Shown here piece after piece: positions 10,782-26,147 of a DNA stretch of 64,000 nt. Origin of the DNA: Terriglobia bacterium (GTDB taxonomy: Bacteria > Acidobacteriota > Terriglobia > 20CM-2-55-15). The notes beneath the pieces are model-generated. The model had not been told where the DNA came from, did no database searches, and saw nothing but the letters and a program-made list of their open reading frames with translations. The position numbers and the translations under genes are program-made. Positions within the stretch are counted from its first letter, which is position 1. Every line of letters starts with the position of its first letter. Where the stretch lies: NCBI GenBank assembly GCA_965218585.1, contig CBDCLE010000001.1, positions 128,001-192,000 on the forward strand, given 5' to 3'.

Positions 10782-11174
10782 ATGAAGAAACGTGATGTCA
10801 GGCGGGAACGGTCAGGGGCTCTTTTCTGCTTCCTGCTGACGTTCGCAGTGGCCGCCCTGGGCGCTGCGGTTTTAGAAATTCAGGCTTCGAGTCGTCAGCC
10901 CCTCGCCCCTGGACTGACCGAACTGCAAGAGGTGTCGACCCCGGATCCTGAGGATTTGGCTAGAGGTCAACGGATTGTCGAAAGTGCCTGCTCCATATGC
11001 CATGACTACCATCTCGTGGAAGAGCAGCGACTGAGCCGGGAAGACTGGGGCTACGTGATCCAGGCGATGCTCGCGAACGGGTCCGATCTGAGCGACCGCG
11101 AGATTCCGTTTGCTCTCGACTACCTGTCGACGGCGTTTTCACCTGGGAGCGGGGGAGAGTCTGAACAGGACTAG
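10782..11174 (+). CDS. Small monoheme cytochrome c
   Basis: N-terminal hydrophobic segment, CSICH, R.SREDW...I..M distal Met; RBS AGAGGAG. Confidence 0.8.
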   Translation: MKKRDVRRERSGALFCFLLTFAVAALGAAVLEIQASSRQPLAPGLTELQEVSTPDPEDLARGQRIVESACSICHDYHLVEEQRLSREDWGYVIQAMLANGSDLSDREIPFALDYLSTAFSPGSGGESEQD

Positions 11175-11237
11175 TCCTGCTTAAGAGCTACCGGCTAAGT
11201 GAGGTAGAATAGGGAAATCTGAAGGAGGGTACGAGCG

Positions 11238-11633
11238 ATGAGATTCCGTCTAGCGTTCTTGCTGGCTGCTGTAATCCTAACGGGAATGATCTTCACGACA
11301 GGTGCTCCTGCTACCCTGGCCCATCATTCGCAGGCAGCTGCGTTCCAAATGGATCAGTGGGTTGAGATCGAAGGAGTTGTCCAACGTTGGCTTTTCAGGA
11401 ATCCACATCCTGTCCTTTTCGTTGAAGTCATTGCAGAGAACGACGAGCCGGTCACTTGGCAGATCGAGTTTCCTCCAGCTACGGTGTTGGCCAAGCGCGG
11501 CTGGACGCCGGAGACGTTTGTTCCAGGACAGGAAATCGCTGCCAGAGGTCATCCATCGAGGGCTCCCGGCACTTACGGCATGGCGGCCGGTGCACAGATC
11601 ACTCGTGAAGACGGGAGCCCGGTTGGATTTTAG
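11238..11633 (+). CDS. DUF6152 family secreted protein
   Basis: Signal ending LA-HHS, F.NPH motif, W.IE..P...L.+RGW; RBS AAGGAGG. Confidence 0.82.
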   Translation: MRFRLAFLLAAVILTGMIFTTGAPATLAHHSQAAAFQMDQWVEIEGVVQRWLFRNPHPVLFVEVIAENDEPVTWQIEFPPATVLAKRGWTPETFVPGQEIAARGHPSRAPGTYGMAAGAQITREDGSPVGF

Positions 11634-11713
11634 CTGAAACCCCTGCGAGCGACGAATATGAAGTTCTGTCTGCCTGCAGGGACTGCTAGCGTGCAGCAGA
11701 ACTCAATTCGTCT

Positions 11714-11923
11714 TTGAAGACCACACCGCCTTTCATCACGAACCCGGCCTTATTTGCCGGGTGGTGTAGGCCTCGGCCGTCCTTACGATGTCGATCCAGG
11801 GGCCGGCGCTTCCTTGCGATCAAGCCGATCACAGGAACTGCCGAGGTCAATACTCCAGCGTTACAGATCAACATCGTCCTGAACTGGTTTGAGGAACTGA
11901 AGGAACGAGTCCCTGTGCCCTGA
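11714..11923 (+). pseudogene. 3' remnant of an Acidobacteria-type Ser/Thr kinase-PD40 beta-propeller gene
   Basis: PYDVDP (other frame) then GRRFLAIK...INIVLNWFEELKERVPVP*; frameshift near 11800; no 5' part present. Confidence 0.7.
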
Positions 11924-11931
11924 TTTTCGAG

Positions 11932-11971
11932 GTCAGGTCCTGAGAAATCATCTTCTCGGACGTTGAGAATT
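11932..11971 (+). repeat. 40-bp imperfect-palindromic site, copy 1
   Basis: GTCAGGTCCTGAGAAATCATCTTCTCGGACGTTGAGAATT. Confidence 0.85.
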
Positions 11972-11989
11972 TCAGCGAACATTGGAGGA

Positions 11990-12388
11990 ATGATGAACAA
12001 GGACCACACTGCGTACCGATTCGCTGTCGGCGTCGCGCTTGCGACAGCATTCATTCTCGTCTGGGTGGCTGGTGCCGTTGGCATCATAGGGGCTGATGGT
12101 GACCCCGCCGACTTGATGTATGTCGGAGTGCTCGCCGTCGGAATCATCGGTGCCCTCATCGCGCGCTTCCAGCCACATGGAATGGCCCGCGCGTTGGTTG
12201 CAACGGCCCTCGCTCAGGCGTTAGTCGCCGTGATCGCGCTGGCCGCCGGGATGGTCCCCGCCTATAATTCTGCGTACGAAATCTTGGGCCTCAATGGGTT
12301 CTTCGTCGCGCTGTGGATCGGATCGGCCAGGCTGTTTCGGTCTGCTGCCGAGGAGCAACCTCGGGCGGGCCGAGCGCCGCAGGGTTGA
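11990..12388 (+). CDS. Small 4-TM membrane protein
   Basis: Four hydrophobic segments; GGAGG RBS at 11984 (start 11990 or 11993). Confidence 0.75.
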   Translation: MMNKDHTAYRFAVGVALATAFILVWVAGAVGIIGADGDPADLMYVGVLAVGIIGALIARFQPHGMARALVATALAQALVAVIALAAGMVPAYNSAYEILGLNGFFVALWIGSARLFRSAAEEQPRAGRAPQG

Positions 12389-12439
12389 CTCGACCGCCGT
12401 CGACGGGTGCCTGTGCCCTAGACGACGGTGAAAATGATT

Positions 12440-12479
12440 GTCAACGCCTGTTAAATCATCTTGTCGGACACTGAGAAAT
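12440..12479 (+). repeat. 40-bp imperfect-palindromic site, copy 2
   Basis: GTCAACGCCTGTTAAATCATCTTGTCGGACACTGAGAAAT. Confidence 0.85.
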
Positions 12480-12488
12480 GGAGATGAA

Positions 12489-12929
12489 ATGCTGAAGAAG
12501 AACTCGAAAGACAAAGTCGCGTTCTGGAATTGGCTAGGCCGGTTGTTTGATCGTCGCCGCAGCTTGGGCATCCGGGTCCCGAAGGTCCGATTTCTGGCCA
12601 TCTCCGTTGCACTTATGGCAACGGGACTGATCTGCAGCGAGGTTCAGCTATTTGCCGTGGGCCAGGAGACGCCTGTCATTCGCAGGATCGGCTATCAAGG
12701 GCAGAATTTCGTTACCGTCACCGACATCCTGGACCGCTTGCGTGAACGGAACGTCGGGCTCAGTGTCGAGCAGGCCTATGACCCGGCGCGAGTCGAGCGC
12801 GCCCGGGATGTGATTGTTGACCTTTTGGACGAGAGAGGCCGTCAGAACGCGTCAGTAGAGGTCGAGGTGTATGACATCCCGCCGCGAGCGGTCGGAGTCA
12901 CGTTCCACATTGATGAAGGAGCGCCTTAA
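12489..12929 (+). CDS. Stand-alone POTRA-like domain protein with a hydrophobic anchor
   Basis: IRRIGYQG.N.VT..DI...L......YDP..VERA..VI..LL.ERG...A.V.......V.VTF.IDEG resembles a BamA POTRA domain; GGAG RBS. Confidence 0.65.
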   Translation: MLKKNSKDKVAFWNWLGRLFDRRRSLGIRVPKVRFLAISVALMATGLICSEVQLFAVGQETPVIRRIGYQGQNFVTVTDILDRLRERNVGLSVEQAYDPARVERARDVIVDLLDERGRQNASVEVEVYDIPPRAVGVTFHIDEGAP

Positions 12930-12967
12930 CGCCGACCGCTGCAACTTCAAGAGAACTGAACGAAACG

Positions 12968-13007
12968 CTCAAGTTCTGAGAAATCATCTTCCCGGACTAT
13001 GAGAAGT
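12968..13007 (+). repeat. 40-bp imperfect-palindromic site, copy 3
   Basis: CTCAAGTTCTGAGAAATCATCTTCCCGGACTATGAGAAGT. Confidence 0.85.
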
Positions 13008-13418
13008 CGTACTCCGGTAAAAAGCCCTTCTTGAAGTCTCCCCGAATCACGCCACACGGCTTTCCCTTTGCGGACGTCTCCCCACAGCGGTTGACGGTCG
13101 ACCGGAGACTTCTGGCGAAAAAAAGGGCGCGCGGGCGGAGAGGTGCCGGTAAAATGCTTCCAGAATCGGGCGCTTCGGTGGATCGGCCCTTGATGCAGAG
13201 TGGCCGGTCGGCGTGTGGGAAGCCGGAAGAACGTGCGACGCAAAAATCTCGACTCTTGGGAGAGCCTCAGTGTACAAACGTTGGATCCGGGCATCAAAAA
13301 TGAAAATCTTAGATGAGATCGGGTGCGCGATCTCTTTGCGGGGAATCCGCCTACGAAGGCGGCATAGAATCAAAACCTTCATTTAACTGAAACTGCAAGG
13401 ATGGAACAGGAGTCCGTA

Positions 13419-14093
13419 ATGAAAATGTTCAAAGTAACAACAATGCTCGTAGCAGCGATCGTGATGGCAGGTTCGAGTGCAATGGCTCAGGAAATGAACT
13501 TCTTTGTCACTAGCGCTGGTTCGGGCTATGGAGGCAACCTGGGTGGTTTGGCTGGTGCCGATGCCCGCTGCCAGGCGTTGGCTTCAGTTGCCGGTGCCGG
13601 CGATAAAACCTGGCGTGCTTATCTGAGCACTCAGGGTCCTAACGCCGTCAATGCACGGGATCGCATCGGCTCCGGACCCTGGTACAACGCCAGTGGAGAC
13701 ATGATCGCGGAAAATCTTGATCAACTGCATCAGGAAGAAGGAAACAATATTAGTTTCGCGACCGCACTGGATGAACATGGCAACCCAGTCCCCTATGTAT
13801 CGATTGGTCCAGACGGCAATCCCTTGCCCCTAGCCTTGCAGATGGACGTGGAACACGATGTCTTGACCGGCTCTCAGCCGGACGGCACGGCATTTCCTGC
13901 CGGCGAAGATCGGACCTGCAATAATTGGATGTCGTCCGACGAAGGCGGCGCGATGCTCGGCCATCATGATCGCCGGGGTTTACAGCCGGGCCTGTCTCCC
14001 TGGAGCAATGCCCATCCTTCGCAGGGCTGTAGCCAACAGGGACTGATCAATACCGGTGGCGCCGGACGCTATTACTGCTTTGCTATCGATTGA
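13419..14093 (+). CDS. Secreted endostatin-like/C-type-lectin-fold protein
   Basis: Signal peptide, FFVTSAG.G.GGNLGGLAGADARCQ, WRAYLS, ARDRIG.GPW, GHHDR, YCFA; RBS AGGAG. Confidence 0.8.
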   Translation: MKMFKVTTMLVAAIVMAGSSAMAQEMNFFVTSAGSGYGGNLGGLAGADARCQALASVAGAGDKTWRAYLSTQGPNAVNARDRIGSGPWYNASGDMIAENLDQLHQEEGNNISFATALDEHGNPVPYVSIGPDGNPLPLALQMDVEHDVLTGSQPDGTAFPAGEDRTCNNWMSSDEGGAMLGHHDRRGLQPGLSPWSNAHPSQGCSQQGLINTGGAGRYYCFAID

Positions 14094-14321
14094 CGTCCAT
14101 AGACTGTTGGTGCCAACAGCAAAATCCCCTTAAGGCGGCATGACAAACGGCTGAACCCGTCAGTCCTCCATGTCCTGCGGCGGCCTGTCGATTAGCCATC
14201 TATAGATCGGCATCGACCACGTAGGGCTGATGGCTTTTGCAAGGAGCCGGACCTTGCGTTTTCTTTTTTTTGATTCTGAGTCCTGGAGTTGTGAAGGCCA
14301 AACTAACCAAAGAATTGATGG

Positions 14322-14361
14322 CTCAAGTCCTGTTAAATCATCTTCGCGGACGTTGAGAATT
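14322..14361 (+). repeat. 40-bp imperfect-palindromic site, copy 4
   Basis: CTCAAGTCCTGTTAAATCATCTTCGCGGACGTTGAGAATT. Confidence 0.85.
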
Positions 14362-14429
14362 GGCCTAAATACAAGCGTTGACCTTCTGATTGCTTACAAA
14401 CCCCTCTTAGTATTCTTTACCGAGTTTTT

Positions 14430-15794
14430 GAGGTCATTACAAAAGGTGTGTAAAAGTCATCAGGCGGCGGCCTTCGATTTCATCACGACTCTGATGCCGT
14501 CAGCGAATTGCTGACCATCATAGACCTCTTGTAAGAGTTCGGATCCTTTTAAGTGTCGCCAAGCCTTCTCAGCGACACGTAGTAGCTTCCAGATCATTGC
14601 CGTTGCATTCTCGACACGCTTGAATCGGCGAGCGGCGTTGGTGCGGAGACGAACCATGTCGAAGGGCGATTCGACGATGTTGGTCGTTCTCAGATGCACC
14701 CAGTGTTGTTTCGGGAACTCATAGAAAGTAATCATCCGGTCCCAGTCCCGCAACAGCGTCTCACCCGCTTTGGGATAGTTCTTCTCATATCGGCGGACGA
14801 ACTGATCCCGCTTTCGTTCGCAGGCCGCGCGGGAGTTCGCGAAGGCCATCCCATGAAGCAGCTGTCTGGCCGCGGGCTGCTCGGTCTTCGGCAGATGATC
14901 GACCACGTTGATCGACTTGTGGTTCCAGCAGCGTTGTTCCTGGCCCTGGGGCTGTTGCTCGGCCAGCGCGGACCAGATGCCCAGGTGACCGTCCGCGACA
15001 GTCAGCCGTCCCAGCTTCAGGCCCCGTCTCTGGAGATTGCGCAGAATGCGGCTCCAGGACTCCTTGCTTTCCCGCTGCCCGCTCTCACAGGCCAACAGCA
15101 CTTTGCGCCTGTCTGACAAGGCTCCGATGATCACCAGCAATGCCGCTCGCTCTTTCGCGATCCCCGCTTTCACGTACAAGCCGTCTGCCCACTGGTACAC
15201 GACCTCGAGGCCGGACAGGTCCTGCTGGACCCACTCGTCATACTCCAACTGCCAGGTCGATTTCAGTCGTTGGATCGATGCTCGCGACAACGGAGCGCCA
15301 GCGCCAAGCAGTCCGCGCATGGCCTGCTCGAAGTCCCCTGTGGCCAGACCGTGGAGGTAGAGATCGGGAAGTAGCTCGCCCAGCTGTTTCGATTTCCGTC
15401 GAAAATACGGCAGGATCTGACTCTCGAACCGCTCGGCGGTGTTTCGAACCCGAGGTCGTCGAACCTCCATCGTACCGTTCATCATTGCGAAGCGTCGCGG
15501 TTTCCCGTGACCGTTCCGGTATCCTCGTCGATTCGGACTCCGCTCCGACTTTTCCCGACCCAGAAATTGAGTGACTTCGTCCTCGAGCAGCTCCTGTAGC
15601 CAGACTTGGACCCGGGATCGTGCCCAGTCCTCCAAACCTTCATACGCGTTCGTTGACGCCACTGATGCCGGTATGTTCTTCTTCTTCATGGGTGGTGTAC
15701 CTTTCTCCCGATTGCTGCCGGGATTGCTTAGGGTTTCGGATTCACCGAAAGCGTACACCGCCTTCTCTTTTTACACACCGATTGGAACGACCTC
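14430..15794 (-). mobile_element. IS256-family insertion sequence
   Basis: 26-bp terminal inverted repeats GAGGTCATTACAAAAGGTGTGTAAAA (14430-14455) and TTTTACACACCGATTGGAACGACCTC (15769-15794), 22/26 match; no flanking direct repeat seen. Confidence 0.88.
14460..15689 (-). CDS. IS256-family DDE transposase
   Basis: GYRNGH, LYLHGLATGDF, WADGLYVK, VADGHLG, QRCWNHK, LRTTNIVES; likely start MKKK at 15689. Confidence 0.92.
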   Translation of the reverse strand: MKKKNIPASVASTNAYEGLEDWARSRVQVWLQELLEDEVTQFLGREKSERSPNRRGYRNGHGKPRRFAMMNGTMEVRRPRVRNTAERFESQILPYFRRKSKQLGELLPDLYLHGLATGDFEQAMRGLLGAGAPLSRASIQRLKSTWQLEYDEWVQQDLSGLEVVYQWADGLYVKAGIAKERAALLVIIGALSDRRKVLLACESGQRESKESWSRILRNLQRRGLKLGRLTVADGHLGIWSALAEQQPQGQEQRCWNHKSINVVDHLPKTEQPAARQLLHGMAFANSRAACERKRDQFVRRYEKNYPKAGETLLRDWDRMITFYEFPKQHWVHLRTTNIVESPFDMVRLRTNAARRFKRVENATAMIWKLLRVAEKAWRHLKGSELLQEVYDGQQFADGIRVVMKSKAAA

Positions 15795-16160
15795 TCCGTT
15801 GATGGCATAGCGCTCAAACTGATGGTGGACCGTTGGGCAGCCGCTTCGGGAGCCGACAAAGAAATCCTGTTCCTTGCCTCCGTCGCAGTGAGACAGATTG
15901 AGATCGGCCTTGCCAGCATCTTAGCTCTACTGTTTGGTATTACAGTGACTACTTACGGCGTAGCTCTTGTGTCGGATCGTAGCTTCCCGAAATGGCTGGG
16001 CTGGCTGGCAATCCTCGGCGGTATACCGATTGCGGTTGCCGGTCTCGCCATGGCTTACACTGGTTTCTCCGATCTGGGGATGACGATCAATTTGTCTGGA
16101 AGCTCTCTCGCACTTTTATGGATGCTTGTTGTCGGTGTATGGATGTGGCATCTGGTTACG
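15795..16160 (+). pseudogene. 5'-truncated multi-TM membrane protein (DUF4386-like)
   Basis: Frame is open right at the IS end (SVDGIALKLMVDRW...), FPKWLGWL and hydrophobic helices; 3' end approximate, reads on into unrelated sequence. Confidence 0.55.
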
Positions 16161-16291
16161 CAACGAGTTCAGACGGAACTGTGGTCTGATCAAAGCTCAA
16201 CTTCGCTTCTGTCGCGGGTGCAGGAAGCGCGGGCCGTGCCGCCGCCACACTGTCGCGAACCGAGGCGGAGCGGGTCGAAGCGATTCAGGTC

Positions 16292-16504
16292 TTGCTCCAT
16301 GCGGGAGCCGACATCCATGCCGTCCGTACGAGGTCCGGCAATACAGCCGCACATTTCGCAGCCGAGGAAGGACTTGAACGCGCGGCGGATGTTCTGTTCG
16401 CATATGGCGCCGACTTCACGCTGAAGAACGCGGACGACCTGAGCGTAGAGGACCTGTTGACCCAGGCCGCTGGAGATACGGAAGACCCGCCTCCGGCAAG
16501 GTGA
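16292..16504 (+). pseudogene. Ankyrin-repeat C-terminal fragment
   Basis: AGADIHAVRTRSGNTAAHFAAEEG...GAD.TLKN, similar to the C-terminus of 9064-10503. Confidence 0.6.
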
Positions 16505-16731
16505 GTTTCAGCAAATAATCACCCTTAGCCAACGCGTTACCAGATCGCTCATCGAGGACGTGGATTTCTGCCTTACCCCATCTCTCTTTCTTCCCTGAAT
16601 TCGCACATTGATCAAAGACGAGTGGTTGTTACAGGACACTCGTCGTAGCGCGTAAGGTACAATGCCGGAAAGTTCGGCGCCGCCCAGTCGAAATATTTCG
16701 GGTGCTTGCCATTAGACACAAGGAGGTTTTC

Positions 16732-18636
16732 ATGACTTTACGGTGGACCAGCATCTTGACTGTGGGACTCCTGGTAGCCGCCCTCCTCATACCGGCCGCT
16801 GAGGCTCAGAATCCGGCCGATTGGCCCATGTACAACAGAGACCTGAACGCGACGCGCTTTTCTCCTCTTAGTGAAATCAATACCGACAACGTAACTGATC
16901 TTGAGGTCGCCTGGACTTATTCGTTGGGAGAGAACAACGCGGGTGGCCTGAGTAACGGCTTCGAGTTCACTCCGATCGTTACGAATGGAATGCTGTATGC
17001 GGCCGCCGAGGGCCGGGTCGTCGCGATGGATCCGGCGACAGGCGAGGAACTCTGGCGCCACAGCGTTACCGGAGATGACCAGCCATCCCGCCGGGCTGTT
17101 GCTTTCTGGGTTGGGGACGAGCAGGAAGATGCGCGGATCTTTTTCACAGCCCGTCGCCGACTGATCGGACTGAGTGCTTTCACGGGCGAACCGGTGGCTC
17201 GCTTTGGAGACGGGGGCGAGGTCGATATGGGTCAGCCGTATGACTCAGCACCCACGGTCTACAGGAATCTACTCATCGTAGGAACGAACGGATTGCCTGG
17301 AAGCGTGCGTGCGTTTGATGCGATGACTGGAGAGAAGGCTTGGGAGTTCTTTTCCATACCGAAACCGGGCGAGCCCGGTAGCGAGAGCTGGGAGGGCGAG
17401 ATTTTCGAGAACGCCGAATCCGTGGCCTGGGCGTTTTCAATGAGTGTCGACACCGAACGGGGCCTGGTCTACGTGATGTTCGACAATCCCGGATACGACT
17501 ACTGGGGTGGAAACCGTCCGGGAAGTAATCTGTTTGGAAACTCCGTGGTGGCGTTGGACGCTGCGACCGGTGAGTACCGGTGGCATTTCCAGACCGTCCA
17601 TCACGATCTCTGGGATTTCGATCAGCCTGCACCCGCCGTCCTGCTGGACCTGAACGTCGACGGAGAAGACGTGCCGGGGCTGGCGATCGTCGGCAAGAGC
17701 GCCTACATGTTCATCCTCAACCGGGAGACGGGCGAACCGGTATTTGGTGTGGAGGAGACTCCCGTTCCTCGAAGTAACGTTCCTACTGAGCGTGCTTCGC
17801 CGACGCAGCCCATTCCCGTAAAGCCGCCGCCGCTGGCCCGTGTCAGCTTCAGCCCGGAGGACCTCGTGACGGCCGAGGACACGAACGCCGAGCATGCCGA
17901 CTTCTGCGCCAATCTCTTTGAGCGGAGCGGCGGTCTGGAGAATCAAGGTCCGTTCACACCTTACACCTATCGCGCTCCCGGCGCGGCGCCCTGCTCGACG
18001 ATTGTTTTTCCCGGCTCGATCGGAGGCGTGAACTGGGGCGGGACAGCTGCGGATCCGACGATCAACTACGTTTTCGCAAACACGATGAGCGAAGCCAGCA
18101 TCGGATGGGTCGAGAACAGTCCGGAAGGCGCGCGGACGCCTTTTCGCAGGGGCAGTATTGTTGGCAGGACTTCCCGATTCCAGTGGAACAATTCGCCGGA
18201 AGATTCGGGAGGGAATATTTCGGGTTCCGGTGAACAGGGCAGTTGGTTGTGTCAGAAGCCGCCCTGGGGTGAACTGGTCGCTGTCGACGCCAACACGGGC
18301 GACATCGCATGGAGAGTTCCCCTTGGGATCAACGAAGGCTTGCCGCCCGAGAAGCAGAGGACAGGCACGCTGAACATGGGCGGTCCCATGGCCACAGGGG
18401 GCGGGCTCGTCTTTATCGGCGCCTCTAATGACCGCAGGTTCCGCGCTTTCGACTCCCGGACCGGAGACCAGCTGTGGGTCACGCGTCTGGACATGAGTGC
18501 CCATGCAGTGCCGATCAGTTATGAGGCCGCCGGCAAGCAGTACGTGGTCATCGTTGCGGGCGGGCAGAGAGGCGACATGGATGACCCGGGACCGGACGGT
18601 TCAGAAGCGTTGGTCGTTTTTGCATTGCCCGAATAG
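16732..18636 (+). CDS. Periplasmic PQQ-dependent dehydrogenase (glucose dehydrogenase-like beta-propeller)
   Basis: DWPMYN, FSPL.EIN..NV, WHFQTVHHDLWDFD, GGVNWGG, KPPWGEL, TGGGLVF; signal peptide; RBS AAGGAGG. Confidence 0.9.
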   Translation: MTLRWTSILTVGLLVAALLIPAAEAQNPADWPMYNRDLNATRFSPLSEINTDNVTDLEVAWTYSLGENNAGGLSNGFEFTPIVTNGMLYAAAEGRVVAMDPATGEELWRHSVTGDDQPSRRAVAFWVGDEQEDARIFFTARRRLIGLSAFTGEPVARFGDGGEVDMGQPYDSAPTVYRNLLIVGTNGLPGSVRAFDAMTGEKAWEFFSIPKPGEPGSESWEGEIFENAESVAWAFSMSVDTERGLVYVMFDNPGYDYWGGNRPGSNLFGNSVVALDAATGEYRWHFQTVHHDLWDFDQPAPAVLLDLNVDGEDVPGLAIVGKSAYMFILNRETGEPVFGVEETPVPRSNVPTERASPTQPIPVKPPPLARVSFSPEDLVTAEDTNAEHADFCANLFERSGGLENQGPFTPYTYRAPGAAPCSTIVFPGSIGGVNWGGTAADPTINYVFANTMSEASIGWVENSPEGARTPFRRGSIVGRTSRFQWNNSPEDSGGNISGSGEQGSWLCQKPPWGELVAVDANTGDIAWRVPLGINEGLPPEKQRTGTLNMGGPMATGGGLVFIGASNDRRFRAFDSRTGDQLWVTRLDMSAHAVPISYEAAGKQYVVIVAGGQRGDMDDPGPDGSEALVVFALPE

Positions 18637-18649
18637 AACAATTCTGTGA

Positions 18650-18680
18650 GAGCCCGGAGGCTCGGCTTCCGGGTTTTCTC
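18650..18680 (+). terminator. Probable terminator hairpin
   Basis: CCCGGAGGC-TCG-GCTTCCGGG followed by TTTT. Confidence 0.5.
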
Positions 18681-18819
18681 TTGGACTCGATCCCGTCCGG
18701 GGGCGAACTACTTTACATCTATTCTTCCCTCCGATACCATTTCTCCAGTTTTACGATTATTCGAATGGGGACAGTGTTTTGCCTGATCCTTTATAGATCC
18801 AAACAAGGAGTGACAAGAT

Positions 18820-24230: not shown

Positions 24231-26135
24231 ATGAGTTTACGATGGACCCCTATCCTGATCCTCGCTGTCACGTTGACAGCCTTGAACCCCGGATCAGGTC
24301 AGGCGCAAAATTTCGATTGGCCGATGTACAACTTCGACCTTTCCGGTACTCGGCATTCCCCTCTAAGGGAAATCAATACGGGCAACGTCGGAGACCTGGA
24401 GCAAGTCTGGTCTTTTAACATCGGCCGGGCCGCCAGCACGGGCGGACTGACGGGAGGTTCAGAGGTGACTCCCATCGTCGTGGATGGCGTGATGTTCCTG
24501 CCAATGGCAGATTCTGTCGTTGCGCTGGATGCGGAAACCGGGGACGAGGTATGGACGTACCAGATGTCGATCGATGAGCCGCCCTCGCGTCGCGGAGTGG
24601 CTTACTGGGGCGGCGATGGCGATGCTGCTGCCCGGATCTACGTGACTTCGGGGAGCCGACTGATCGGGCTGAGTGCATTCACGGGCGAACCCACCGCAAA
24701 TTTTGGTGACGGTGGCATCGTGGATATGGTCCAGGCCTACAACGGCGTTCCCGCCGTTTTCGAAAACCGCATGCTCGTGGGCACCAACGGTGTTCCGGGA
24801 GCGGTCCGCACCTTTGATGCCGTCACCGGAGATCTGGTCTGGGAATTCCGTTCTGTTCCGCAGCCGGGTGAGTTCGGAAACGATACCTGGGAAAACGAGA
24901 GTTGGCGGGATCGGACGGGCACCTATGCTTGGGCTTTTGCTCCGACCATGGACCTTGAGAGAGGTATATACTACGCGCCGTTCGAGACGGCGGGACCTAT
25001 CGATTACTGGGGCGGGGACCGCCATGGCGACAACCTGTTCGCAGGTTCGATCGTGGCGCTGGACATTCGAACCGGAGAACGCTTGTGGCATTTCCAGCAT
25101 GTGCACCACGATCTCTGGGATTACGACCTGCCGTCGTCTCCCACGCTCCTCGATGTGATCGTCGATGGAGAAGTCGTCCCGATTCTCGCGCAGACCGCCA
25201 AGACCGGCTACATGTACATCCTGAATCGAGTGACGGGTGAACCTGTATTCGGCATCGAGGAAGTTCCGATGCCCCCGACATCGGTTCCCGAAGACCTGGC
25301 TTCTCTGACGCAGCCGATTCCGGTGAAACCGCCACCATTGGCGCGGGTCAGCTACAGTCCCGAAGATCTCGTGACGGCCGAGGACACCAACGCCGAGCAT
25401 GCTGCTTTCTGTGCGGAGTTGGTGGAACGCAGCGGAGGGTTCTATAACGTAGGGCCGTTCACGCCATACGTGTTTCGCGAAGACGGCGCACCCCCTTATT
25501 CCACCGTCATTTTCCCCGGTTCGGTCGGTGGAGCCAACTGGGGAGGTAATACTGCAGATCCTGGACTGGGTTACGTCATCGTTAACACGATGAGTGAAGC
25601 CAGCTTTGGGTGGATTGAAAGGAGTCCCGAAGGCGCTCGCGTGCCCTATCGGCGGAACAGCATCGTCGGCCGGACTTCACGGTTCCAGTGGTTCGACAAT
25701 ACGCCCGACTCGGGCGGCAACATCGTCGGGGCAGGGGAGATGGGCTGGCCGTGCCAGAAGCCACCCTGGGGTGAACTCGTTGCTGTCGATGCCAACACAG
25801 GCGACATCGCGTGGAGAGTTCCGCTGGGTATCACCGAGGAGCTCGAAGGCGATAAGCAGAAGACGGGCCGATTGAATTTCGGTGGTCCGATGTCTACCGC
25901 GGGCGGCCTCGTGTTCATCGGGGCCAGTAACGACCGGCGCTTCCGGGCGTTCGACACCCGCACAGGAGAAGAACTCTGGACCCAGTCTCTTGTGATGAGT
26001 GCCCACGCTGTTCCGATCTCCTACGCCGTTAACGGCAAACAGTACGTGGCCGTTGTCGCCGGCGGGCAACGAGGCGACGTGGATGACCCCGGCCCGGAAG
26101 GGGCCGAGGCGGTCGTCGTTTTCGCACTGCCCTAA
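24231..26135 (+). CDS. Periplasmic PQQ-dependent dehydrogenase (paralog of 16732)
   Basis: HHDLWDYD, TQPIPVKPPPLARVS, KPPWGELVAVDANTG; RBS AAGGAG. Confidence 0.9.
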   Translation: MSLRWTPILILAVTLTALNPGSGQAQNFDWPMYNFDLSGTRHSPLREINTGNVGDLEQVWSFNIGRAASTGGLTGGSEVTPIVVDGVMFLPMADSVVALDAETGDEVWTYQMSIDEPPSRRGVAYWGGDGDAAARIYVTSGSRLIGLSAFTGEPTANFGDGGIVDMVQAYNGVPAVFENRMLVGTNGVPGAVRTFDAVTGDLVWEFRSVPQPGEFGNDTWENESWRDRTGTYAWAFAPTMDLERGIYYAPFETAGPIDYWGGDRHGDNLFAGSIVALDIRTGERLWHFQHVHHDLWDYDLPSSPTLLDVIVDGEVVPILAQTAKTGYMYILNRVTGEPVFGIEEVPMPPTSVPEDLASLTQPIPVKPPPLARVSYSPEDLVTAEDTNAEHAAFCAELVERSGGFYNVGPFTPYVFREDGAPPYSTVIFPGSVGGANWGGNTADPGLGYVIVNTMSEASFGWIERSPEGARVPYRRNSIVGRTSRFQWFDNTPDSGGNIVGAGEMGWPCQKPPWGELVAVDANTGDIAWRVPLGITEELEGDKQKTGRLNFGGPMSTAGGLVFIGASNDRRFRAFDTRTGEELWTQSLVMSAHAVPISYAVNGKQYVAVVAGGQRGDVDDPGPEGAEAVVVFALP

Positions 26136-26147
26136 CTACCGGACTCA

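Follow-up and report, generated by a model that had tools for sequence, protein, structure and literature searches.

Co-oriented palindromic sites as junctions of exchangeable single-gene units in a Terriglobia genome

Positions 11,932 to 14,361 of a 64-kb stretch of DNA from a Terriglobia bacterium (assembly GCA_965218585.1) carry four copies of a short palindromic site, with genes lying between them. The whole stretch, hereafter the window, corresponds to G000:C1:128001-192000, where G000 denotes this 4.55-Mb genome of 26 contigs and C1 one of its contigs. The four copies belong to a site family whose members keep one orientation within arrays, adjoin the flanks of a Ser/Thr-kinase gene family, and stand between units that have been exchanged among species of the genus, with the homology breaking inside the sites. 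A first reading of the window from its letters alone (the sequence-only reading) had proposed that such sites are the junctions of exchangeable single-gene units, and the co-orientation, the recurrence of units and the breaks in homology inside sites support that proposal. We read the sites as duplex core sites of a conservative recombinase, and thus as parts of a cassette system that is not an integron, with a probability of roughly 0.45. Conservative recombination between co-oriented duplex sites is suggested by four properties together: strict orientation, an invariant asymmetric centre, shuffling of half-sites, and exchanged accessory cargo.

The site family and the exchange of its units

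Reading of the sequence confirmed the four plus-strand 40-mer copies reported at 11932, 12440, 12968 and 14322, their start-to-start spacing of 508, 528 and 1354 bp, the single plus-strand gene in each interval, and the start codons of the first two genes 18 and 9 nt after their sites. The length of 40 bp proved too short, as the repeat spans about 46 bp and conserved flanks reach further on both sides. A 17-position core pattern, AAATCATCTTNNCGGAC, had 4 exact matches in the window, compared with 0.12 expected, and none of 100 shuffles of the window attained that number. The site is an imperfect palindrome composed of outer arms ATTCTCAA and TTGAGAAT, a CC/GG pair, inner arms TGAnAA and TTnTC, and the centre AAATCATCTT. 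The asymmetric centre was the same in 44 of 44 strong ungapped copies, in contrast to the variable inner arms, as would suit a crossover region where the partners need to match.

A profile built from 49 seed copies was used with nhmmer, which returned 105 matches in G000 at E<=1 and 75 at E<1e-3; the genome carries 66-100 copies. The copies form 25 clusters of up to 9 each, and 61 of 63 copies examined were intergenic. All 41 neighbouring standard pairs less than 6 kb apart were co-oriented. Spacing between sites ranged from 438 to 5885 bp, with a median of 1687. One gene per interval, which describes the window array, is not a general rule, since exactly one called gene was present in only 21 of 41 intervals genome-wide. 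The cargo in G000 is mixed, including methyltransferases, a glyoxalase, a metallo-beta-lactamase fold, amidohydrolases, a cupin, DUF3024, cytochromes c, an outer-membrane barrel, kinases and many insertion sequences (ISs).

Matches to the pattern numbered 61 in G000, and 153, 109, 10 and 3 in its congeners G001, G003, G002 and G004, respectively. Among 36 genomes of other genera, 7 had 1-3 matches and 29 had none, and the reversed pattern, used as a control, had 0 matches in any genome. In a collection of metagenome contigs, 24 short ones carried a single copy and none an array, and a collection of genome contigs yielded matches on two stretches of a G002 contig only. G004 has a sister family, which shares the left half of the G000 site up to AAATC and has a different right half, again complementary to CTGTTAA. 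Kinase tails in G004 are followed by this sister palindrome (containing GTCCTGTTAAATCCGGTTAACAG; loci L096-L101), which has only the left half in common with the G000 family. Many G000 sites look hybrid, combining GTTAA left arms with right arms that do not match them, and the partner TTAAC is present in the G004 family.

Units bounded by sites, from G000 arrays other than that of the window, recur in G001 and G003 at 88-96% nucleotide identity, in unlinked places and beside different neighbours, with backbone DNA at 69-80%. The recurring units include DUF3024 (92-95%), an amidohydrolase (94%), a cyclase (90%), PCMT (92-93%), a glyoxalase (90%) and a 572-aa open reading frame (ORF; 93-96%). 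For example, the DUF3024 and PCMT units are adjacent in G001 and lie on different contigs in G000 and G003. Gene content between sites differs between species.

The ends of these units show half-sites in changing combinations. At the left end of the DUF3024 unit, the right half-site and its odd flank, GTTGACATGCGG, are common to three genomes, each of which has a different left half-site before them; at the right end of the unit, a common left half (TCAGG type) precedes three different right halves. The right end of the cyclase unit has a left half with 0 differences, and the next 24 nt have 5. A rare GGAAGT right half moves with PCMT in G001 and G003, where it stands behind different left halves. 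Wherever the homology break could be resolved, it fell inside the invariant centre, between AAATCAT and CTT. In a census of 17 shared segments other than ISs, 5 had an end lying no more than 25 nt from a site centre in both genomes; for a sixth (L044) this applied to the G000 copy only.

Kinase flanks, candidate enzymes and a proposed mechanism

The sites are preceded by the 3′ end of a PD40-type Ser/Thr-kinase gene, complete in some cases and truncated in others, which ends in NWFEELKERVPVP and a stop codon. A 14-nt kinase-tail motif was found within 70 nt of 25 of 59 strong sites, compared with 26 of 5000 control windows, and 18 of 35 long kinase tails have a site after them. A variant site with the centre AAACGAyCTT lies inverted about 100 nt upstream of the start codon in 6 of 19 kinase starts, and often stands at the head of an array. 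In at least five places the inverted variant, and after it the kinase leader, begins 15-20 nt behind a standard site. Genes other than kinases were found within kinase "shells": the amidohydrolase of G001 follows the first 14 kinase codons and the cyclase of G000 and G003 follows 12-13, each with a kinase tail and a site downstream. The sequence-only reading, which took the sites as bounds of unrelated genes, is supported as to the junctions but missed the kinase paralog flank and the head and tail remnants. In a separate case on C2 (L012 6262-8960, 550.3-553.0 kb), an 848-aa kinase ORF stops before the usual tail, whose sequence continues in another ORF of 50 aa, probably because of a frameshift.

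The position of the variant upstream of kinase starts (6/19) could also indicate an operator, that is, a palindromic regulator site or promoter part that controls the kinase family and the downstream gene. A conserved palindrome with an invariant centre suits a protein-binding site, and a conserved head after the site often runs into the next gene. We nevertheless consider this quite unlikely: no sigma-70-like promoter was found in 11600-14500, where 1.3 were expected, a transcript starting at the two sites with genes 9-18 nt after them would be almost without a leader, and neither the half-site shuffling between species nor the strict co-orientation over 10-15 kb would be explained.

As for the enzyme, the sequence-only reading had proposed a tyrosine, serine or HUH recombinase acting in trans. 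The sites do behave as unit junctions, but no such recombinase was found. The window itself lacks one, as that reading stated, with no PF00589 or PF00239 match within its 64 kb. G000 has two Xer-like recombinases (C10:73.4 kb, 300 aa; C3:185.3 kb, 309 aa), nine other PF00589 matches and eight PF00239 matches. A resolvase at C1:33.7 kb was discarded because it is also found, at 92-93%, in G013, which has no sites, and recombinases at C26:232 kb, C26:8.2 kb and C24:114 kb were discarded because their distribution over 41 genomes does not fit. Four phage-type integrases (L086-L089) and a 233-aa PF00589 fragment on C2 (L093) stand outside this profiling. A single dif-like palindrome, TGTCGCATAA TGAGTA TTATGTCAAGT, lies on the minus strand at C10:37516, 36 kb from an Xer-like gene, and is a candidate chromosomal dif by its sequence.

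No integron integrase was found in G000, where the best TIGR02249 score, 83.7 bits, stayed far below the cut-off of 265. G001, G002 and G003 each have one full-length integron integrase, scoring 440-458 bits (Table 1), and no site copy at E<0.01 lies within 20 kb around any of these three genes. A repeat search of 20 kb at the G003 and G001 loci found no other repeat arrays there. A second intI of G003, at C2:200-202.5 kb, is interrupted.

These integrases bear on the possibility that the sites are compressed integron attC sites, lying in clusters of attC lacking integron integrases (CALINs) and served in trans by the integrase of a sister genome. attC sites fold from a single strand, leave about 5 nt unpaired as a central spacer, have extrahelical bases, and usually measure 57-141 bp. 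Co-oriented arrays and promoterless small genes of mixed function are as expected of such clusters, and an attC model for Acidobacteria exists (Ghaly et al. 2021, PMC8352920, in excerpt). The order R′′-spacer-L′′-loop-L′-spacer-R′ can be read in class A copies (TCTCAAC GC CTGATAA ATCATC TTGTCGG AC GTTGAGA). The sequence-only reading had found attC-type boxes to be lacking, which applies to class B copies, whose GGTCAAG is not complementary to their own R′, but not to many class A copies, whose TCTCAAC and GTTGAGA match at 6/7 each and are complementary. The crossover, however, does not lie between G and TT: positions 29-36 differ behind a shared left half and move with the downstream unit, and a crossover at the centre instead of the GTT end argues against attC sites. 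Moreover, the sites are 46 bp long with 2-nt instead of 5-6-nt spacers and no constant extrahelical bases, the window copies fold no better than shuffles, and G002 has an integrase but only 10 pattern matches. Together with the lack of an integrase in G000 and of sites near those of its congeners, this makes the attC interpretation very unlikely.

We favour duplex recombination sites, for which the following course can be proposed. The palindrome would have begun as the 3′ flank of an expanded PD40 Ser/Thr-kinase gene family, and often still is such a flank. With inner arms in the fuller form CCTGAnAA / TTnTCGG, co-oriented copies would act as crossover points on duplex DNA, strand exchange taking place inside the invariant centre. 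A mobile unit would then run from a right half-site through a short conserved head and one or a few genes to, in most cases, a kinase-tail remnant and finally the next left half-site. A site-specific recombinase supplied in trans would carry out the exchange; it may be of the tyrosine type, acting on two arms of about 8 bp around a 6-bp spacer, or alternatively of the serine type, cutting at the central dinucleotide. Units may pass through excised circles, and cassettes without kinases may have arisen when foreign genes replaced the interior of a kinase cassette. More tentatively, this may be an integrase-independent cassette system of the Terriglobia, derived from kinase flanks, with a central crossover and undescribed before, whose recombinase, an Xer protein or an unrecognised one, would be new for this role. 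On the same tentative footing, the co-oriented arrays of that system would stockpile single genes and exchange them between species, with a sister family in G004. Excerpts of the literature on attC and gene cassettes of Acidobacteria, on REP and RAYT sequences, and on kinase paralogs and mobile elements contained nothing on this motif or on cassettes with kinase flanks.

A number of observations weigh against exchange by a dedicated recombinase. None of the 11 PF00589 or 8 PF00239 matches in G000 adjoins an array, and of four recombinases profiled over 41 genomes none is confined to site-rich genomes. Several unit tails stop 90-250 nt short of the next site centre. The crossover is resolved only to positions 18-29, which is also the longest identical stretch, so that exchange driven by homology or microhomology would be placed there as well. 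The base-by-base comparison covers only four units, chosen as the best matches. Some junctions are plainly illegitimate, such as that of a truncated inverted amidohydrolase copy; the only within-genome duplicate other than ISs, which dominated that search for break points, was the amidohydrolase on C4 and C9, again with illegitimate junctions. The island that holds the window array is not marked by a site at its edges in the corresponding empty loci of the congeners. No circle or clean deletion joint was seen in contigs from four of 24 public runs (X19, X20, X21 and X1), whose joints are ambiguous: 11971>14322 and 12934>14323 may derive from other family copies, so that neither excision nor its absence is shown, and depth in these contigs piles up on the repeat and on ISs.

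The main rival dispenses with a dedicated recombinase. According to it, the site is a genus-specific extragenic palindrome like the repetitive extragenic palindromes (REPs) and bacterial interspersed mosaic elements (BIMEs), transcribed together with the gene before it as a 3′ stem-loop, at first that of the kinase mRNAs, which spread or was kept for its RNA or DNA structure, and gene exchange is a by-product of homologous or replication-linked recombination of the host among about 100 copies. We regard this passive explanation as less likely than the site-specific one. It explains much of the same data, including the copy number, the dimers and the targeting by ISs. Copy number, size, intergenic position and limitation to one genus all fit, and the standard copy followed by an inverted variant resembles a BIME dimer or a REP doublet (REPIN). 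An IS30-type element lies in the loop of several copies, and some ISs reportedly insert likewise in REPs. The T-G combinations seen at arm positions 15/32 and 18/29 could form pairs only in the sense RNA, and the right arm of the G004 family is again complementary to CTGTTAA. On the other hand, the loop is the most conserved part of the site (44/44), orientation is kept in every pair even where inner genes are reversed (23 of the 74 genes between site pairs are oriented against the sites), and RecA works poorly on 46 bp of imperfect identity.

Folding was also divided. The palindrome is a property of the consensus (73.9% of cells paired, compared with 30-46% when partners were slid). The imperfect hairpin drawn in the sequence-only reading is weak in the window, where the folds of the four copies do not surpass those of shuffles (z = -1.2 to +0.9 as DNA and -1.3 to +1.4 as RNA). 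Class B copies likewise fold no better than shuffles. Strong folding was seen only in near-perfect copies, the best of which favour the REP-like explanation, such as the class A copy at C2:108713 (-21.9 kcal/mol, z -6.5). Against it, covariation within the site was not above that of shuffles, which had 73.3% paired (128 of 500 did as well as the site), and neither was the score for compensatory changes keeping the stem (0.120, compared with 0.110 in shuffles; 75 of 500 attained it).

Genes like those of REP-associated tyrosine transposases (RAYTs) are present in all five genomes of the genus, which also suits a REP-like origin; their NF047646 scores (72, 56 and 56 bits) do not reach the cut-off, which is 80. 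However, the RAYT-like gene of G000 (L077 1135-1999; C10:115.4-116.3 kb) is flanked not by the site but by inverted repeats with GGGGTCAGAGCCC, an unrelated 15-mer that has 27 matches in G000. Beside one RAYT-like copy in G001 a site lies about 250 bp upstream, with none on the other side. With its own inverted repeats, the G000 gene matches the acidobacterial "TIRYT" group described in an excerpt of PMC3733652.

The window array, its island and elements beside sites

The features of the window array are listed in Table 1, together with the integron integrase loci of the congeners.

Table 1. Coordinates of the window array, its surroundings and the integron integrase loci
Feature	Position	Strand	Remarks
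Island specific to G000, holding the array	11634..18810	.	tblastx synteny; junction BLAST
Remnant of PD40 Ser/Thr-kinase gene 3′ end	11714..11925	+	clear tail (ending in NWFEELKERVPVP and stop) 11864-11925
Site 1, class B: GAGGTCAGGTCC TGAGAA ATCATC TTCTC GGACGTTGAGAAT	11929..11973	+
Cassette gene 1, 132 aa, hydrophobic, no Pfam family	11990..12388	+
Short kinase-tail remnant (gacgggtgcctgtgcccTAG + spacer) before site 2	12402..12434	+
Site 2, class A-like: GATTGTCAACGCC TGTTAA ATCATC TTGTC GGACACTGAGAAAT	12437..12481	+
Cassette gene 2, lone POTRA domain protein	12489..12929	+	PF07244, E 1.8e-7
Site 3, weakest copy: TCAAGTTC...GGACTATGAGAAG	12965..13009	+
Cassette gene 3, DUF1554 protein	13401..14093	+	PF07588, E 9.7e-7
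Site 4	14319..14363	+
Conserved "head" after site 4 = kinase-family 5′ leader (...TTGACCTTCTGATTGC...CTTAGTATTCTTTACCGAGTTTTT), interrupted by IS	14364..14429	+
IS256-family insertion sequence within leader, directly after site 4	14430..15798	-	PF00872, E 3.5e-58
Integron integrase, L031	G003:C2:3.04 Mb
Integron integrase, L032	G001:C9:0.71 Mb
Integron integrase, L033	G002:C41:5.42 Mb

Homologs of cassette gene 1 occur at 71-80% nucleotide identity in G001-G004, with flanks that lack the same sites. The last 160 nt of cassette gene 2 have a 94% match beside a site in G003 (L041 17429-17590), and the DUF1554 gene has a terminator-like hairpin and T-run of its own at 14238-14268, ahead of site 4. 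Kinase remnants accompany the whole array, as a tail of about 210 nt before site 1, 20-30 nt before sites 2 and 3, and the leader after site 4. The unit of site 4 plus leader has copies at 90-95% in G001 and G003, and a unit of about 105 bp, composed of kinase tail and site, has many copies at 85-93% in G001-G004. Several cassettes unrelated to one another share another conserved "head" after their sites, TTTCAGCrAACGGAArCTAGAA, namely at window positions 11974-11993 (gene 1), at L043 3094-3125 and at L018 after 2896, with genes that include PCMT and a gene on C12. An Rfam scan of 11000-15000 at E<=10 returned nothing but chance-level matches of the snoRNA type.

Backbone genes near the array (ankyrin, cytochrome c, DUF6152 and the gene at 18.8 kb) are syntenic in G001, G003 and G002. 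In these three congeners no more than about 90 bp separate the DUF6152 gene (window 11238-11633) from the ortholog of window 18.8-19.4 kb downstream of it, and about 7.2 kb, including the whole array, is missing; none of the three empty loci has a site copy. The island also carries a PQQ-dehydrogenase paralog (16702-18636) of a gene at 24231-26147. The latter is the copy that the sister genomes keep (87-89% aa), and to it the paralog on the island is about 69% identical.

Elements in or beside sites are ordinary transposons of the IS30-type, IS256, IS91 and other families. The IS256-family element of the window, which the sequence-only reading passed over, has a transposase ORF at 14460-15758 and many near-identical copies in G000, and is no part of the site system. 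Elements of this family and a 1.38-kb DDE_Tnp_1_4 IS repeatedly lie in the conserved leader, 40-90 nt downstream of sites, in the window and after sites on C9, C11, C16 and C24, which makes the leader an insertion hot spot. A 1.25-kb IS with a 395-aa HTH_38 + rve transposase (C13:7107-8357, L104), which we take to be a member of the IS30 family, is inserted in the site centre between AAATCAT and ATCTT and has subterminal inverted repeats CAACCGGTCGAyGCAACA; split copies of it lie at C3:347.6-348.8 kb, C24:212.8 kb, C11:73.1 kb and C18:26.7 kb. In G001, a 2.5-kb IS91-family element (Y2_Tnp + Zn_Tnp_IS91), with a 293-aa tyrosine recombinase upstream, lies 20-40 bp after a site (L034 2863-5370 and 16153-18660, on C1), in a position after GAAC that fits the target preference of IS91. 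Six identical copies of it are present in G001, more than 20 related ones in G002 and two in G003, and none was found in G000; in all three genomes that have it, such an element lies beside sites. Its tyrosine recombinase was dismissed as the site enzyme, being part of a separate transposon with only Xer proteins as homologs in G000.

The high copy number and the several types of IS in or beside sites might suggest that the sites themselves are IS ends or a miniature inverted-repeat transposable element. We consider this highly improbable, as the intervals of 438-5885 bp have unrelated content, the copies are direct instead of inverted, and each IS found there has different ends of its own.

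Comparison with known systems

The sites resemble REPs, BIMEs and REPINs in being about 100 extragenic imperfect palindromes, limited to a genus and downstream of genes, some of them forming inverted dimers of two subtypes and some receiving transposable elements. Features of REPs were taken from excerpts of PMC3733652 and PMC2817692, the former describing an unpaired GTAG or CGTC tag at one end. The sites differ in having no GTAG tag. CGTC is found on their reverse strand (AACGTCCG), where it lies within the stem and forms no unpaired tag. They also differ in that no RAYT is flanked by them, the loop is invariant, and long co-oriented arrays take the place of mostly head-to-head dimers.

Clustered short palindromes in Neisseria, the dRS3 and Neisseria intergenic mosaic element (NIME) arrays, reportedly mark places of insertion and rearrangement, and the "minimal mobile elements" of that genus are said to be units exchanged between conserved flanks. 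Exchange there is said to proceed by transformation and homologous recombination of the flanking genes. The phylum and the sequence are different. An excerpt of PMC3733652 mentions dRS3 as CGTC-1 repeats.

Integrons and CALINs share with the present system co-oriented imperfect palindromes, unrelated small genes that mostly lack promoters, sites specific to a lineage, boxes like R′′ and R′ in class A copies, and cassettes that cross species. In contrast, the present sites have a central crossover, a length of 46 bp and 2-nt spacers, no integrase in G000 or link to one elsewhere, and kinase remnants beside them. The pdif modules of Acinetobacter, which excerpts of PMC13141974, PMC6449649 and PMC10132070 describe, are likewise independent of integrons, with short core sites around a 6-bp centre between which one or a few accessory genes are shuffled among replicons. 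There XerC and XerD act in trans and ISs target the sites, as ISs do here, and G000 has two Xer-like recombinases. However, the sites described here are all direct (41/41) instead of alternating, chromosomal, and tied to kinase gene flanks, and the cassette arms match the dif-like candidate at C10:37516(-) in 5-6 of 11 positions by eye. The site system thus appears to belong neither to integrons, by its crossover, design and integrase, nor to dif modules, by its orientation, its weak match to the dif-like candidate and its chromosomal instead of plasmid location.

Integrons and the dif modules of Acinetobacter are the two recognised ways of filing single genes between short recombination sites. 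If the sites are indeed duplex recombination sites, they would represent a third, in an abundant and little-studied phylum, with a new site design, a central crossover and no linked integrase, and their short, well-defined sequence would serve in a search for the enzyme. They would also show in concrete terms how genes flow, and how kinase paralogs expand and decay, in Acidobacteriota, where the principle may be widespread and could help to explain large paralog expansions. If instead the passive, REP-like explanation is true, the family would still be a clean natural case of dispersed palindromes that set the break points of exchange between species.

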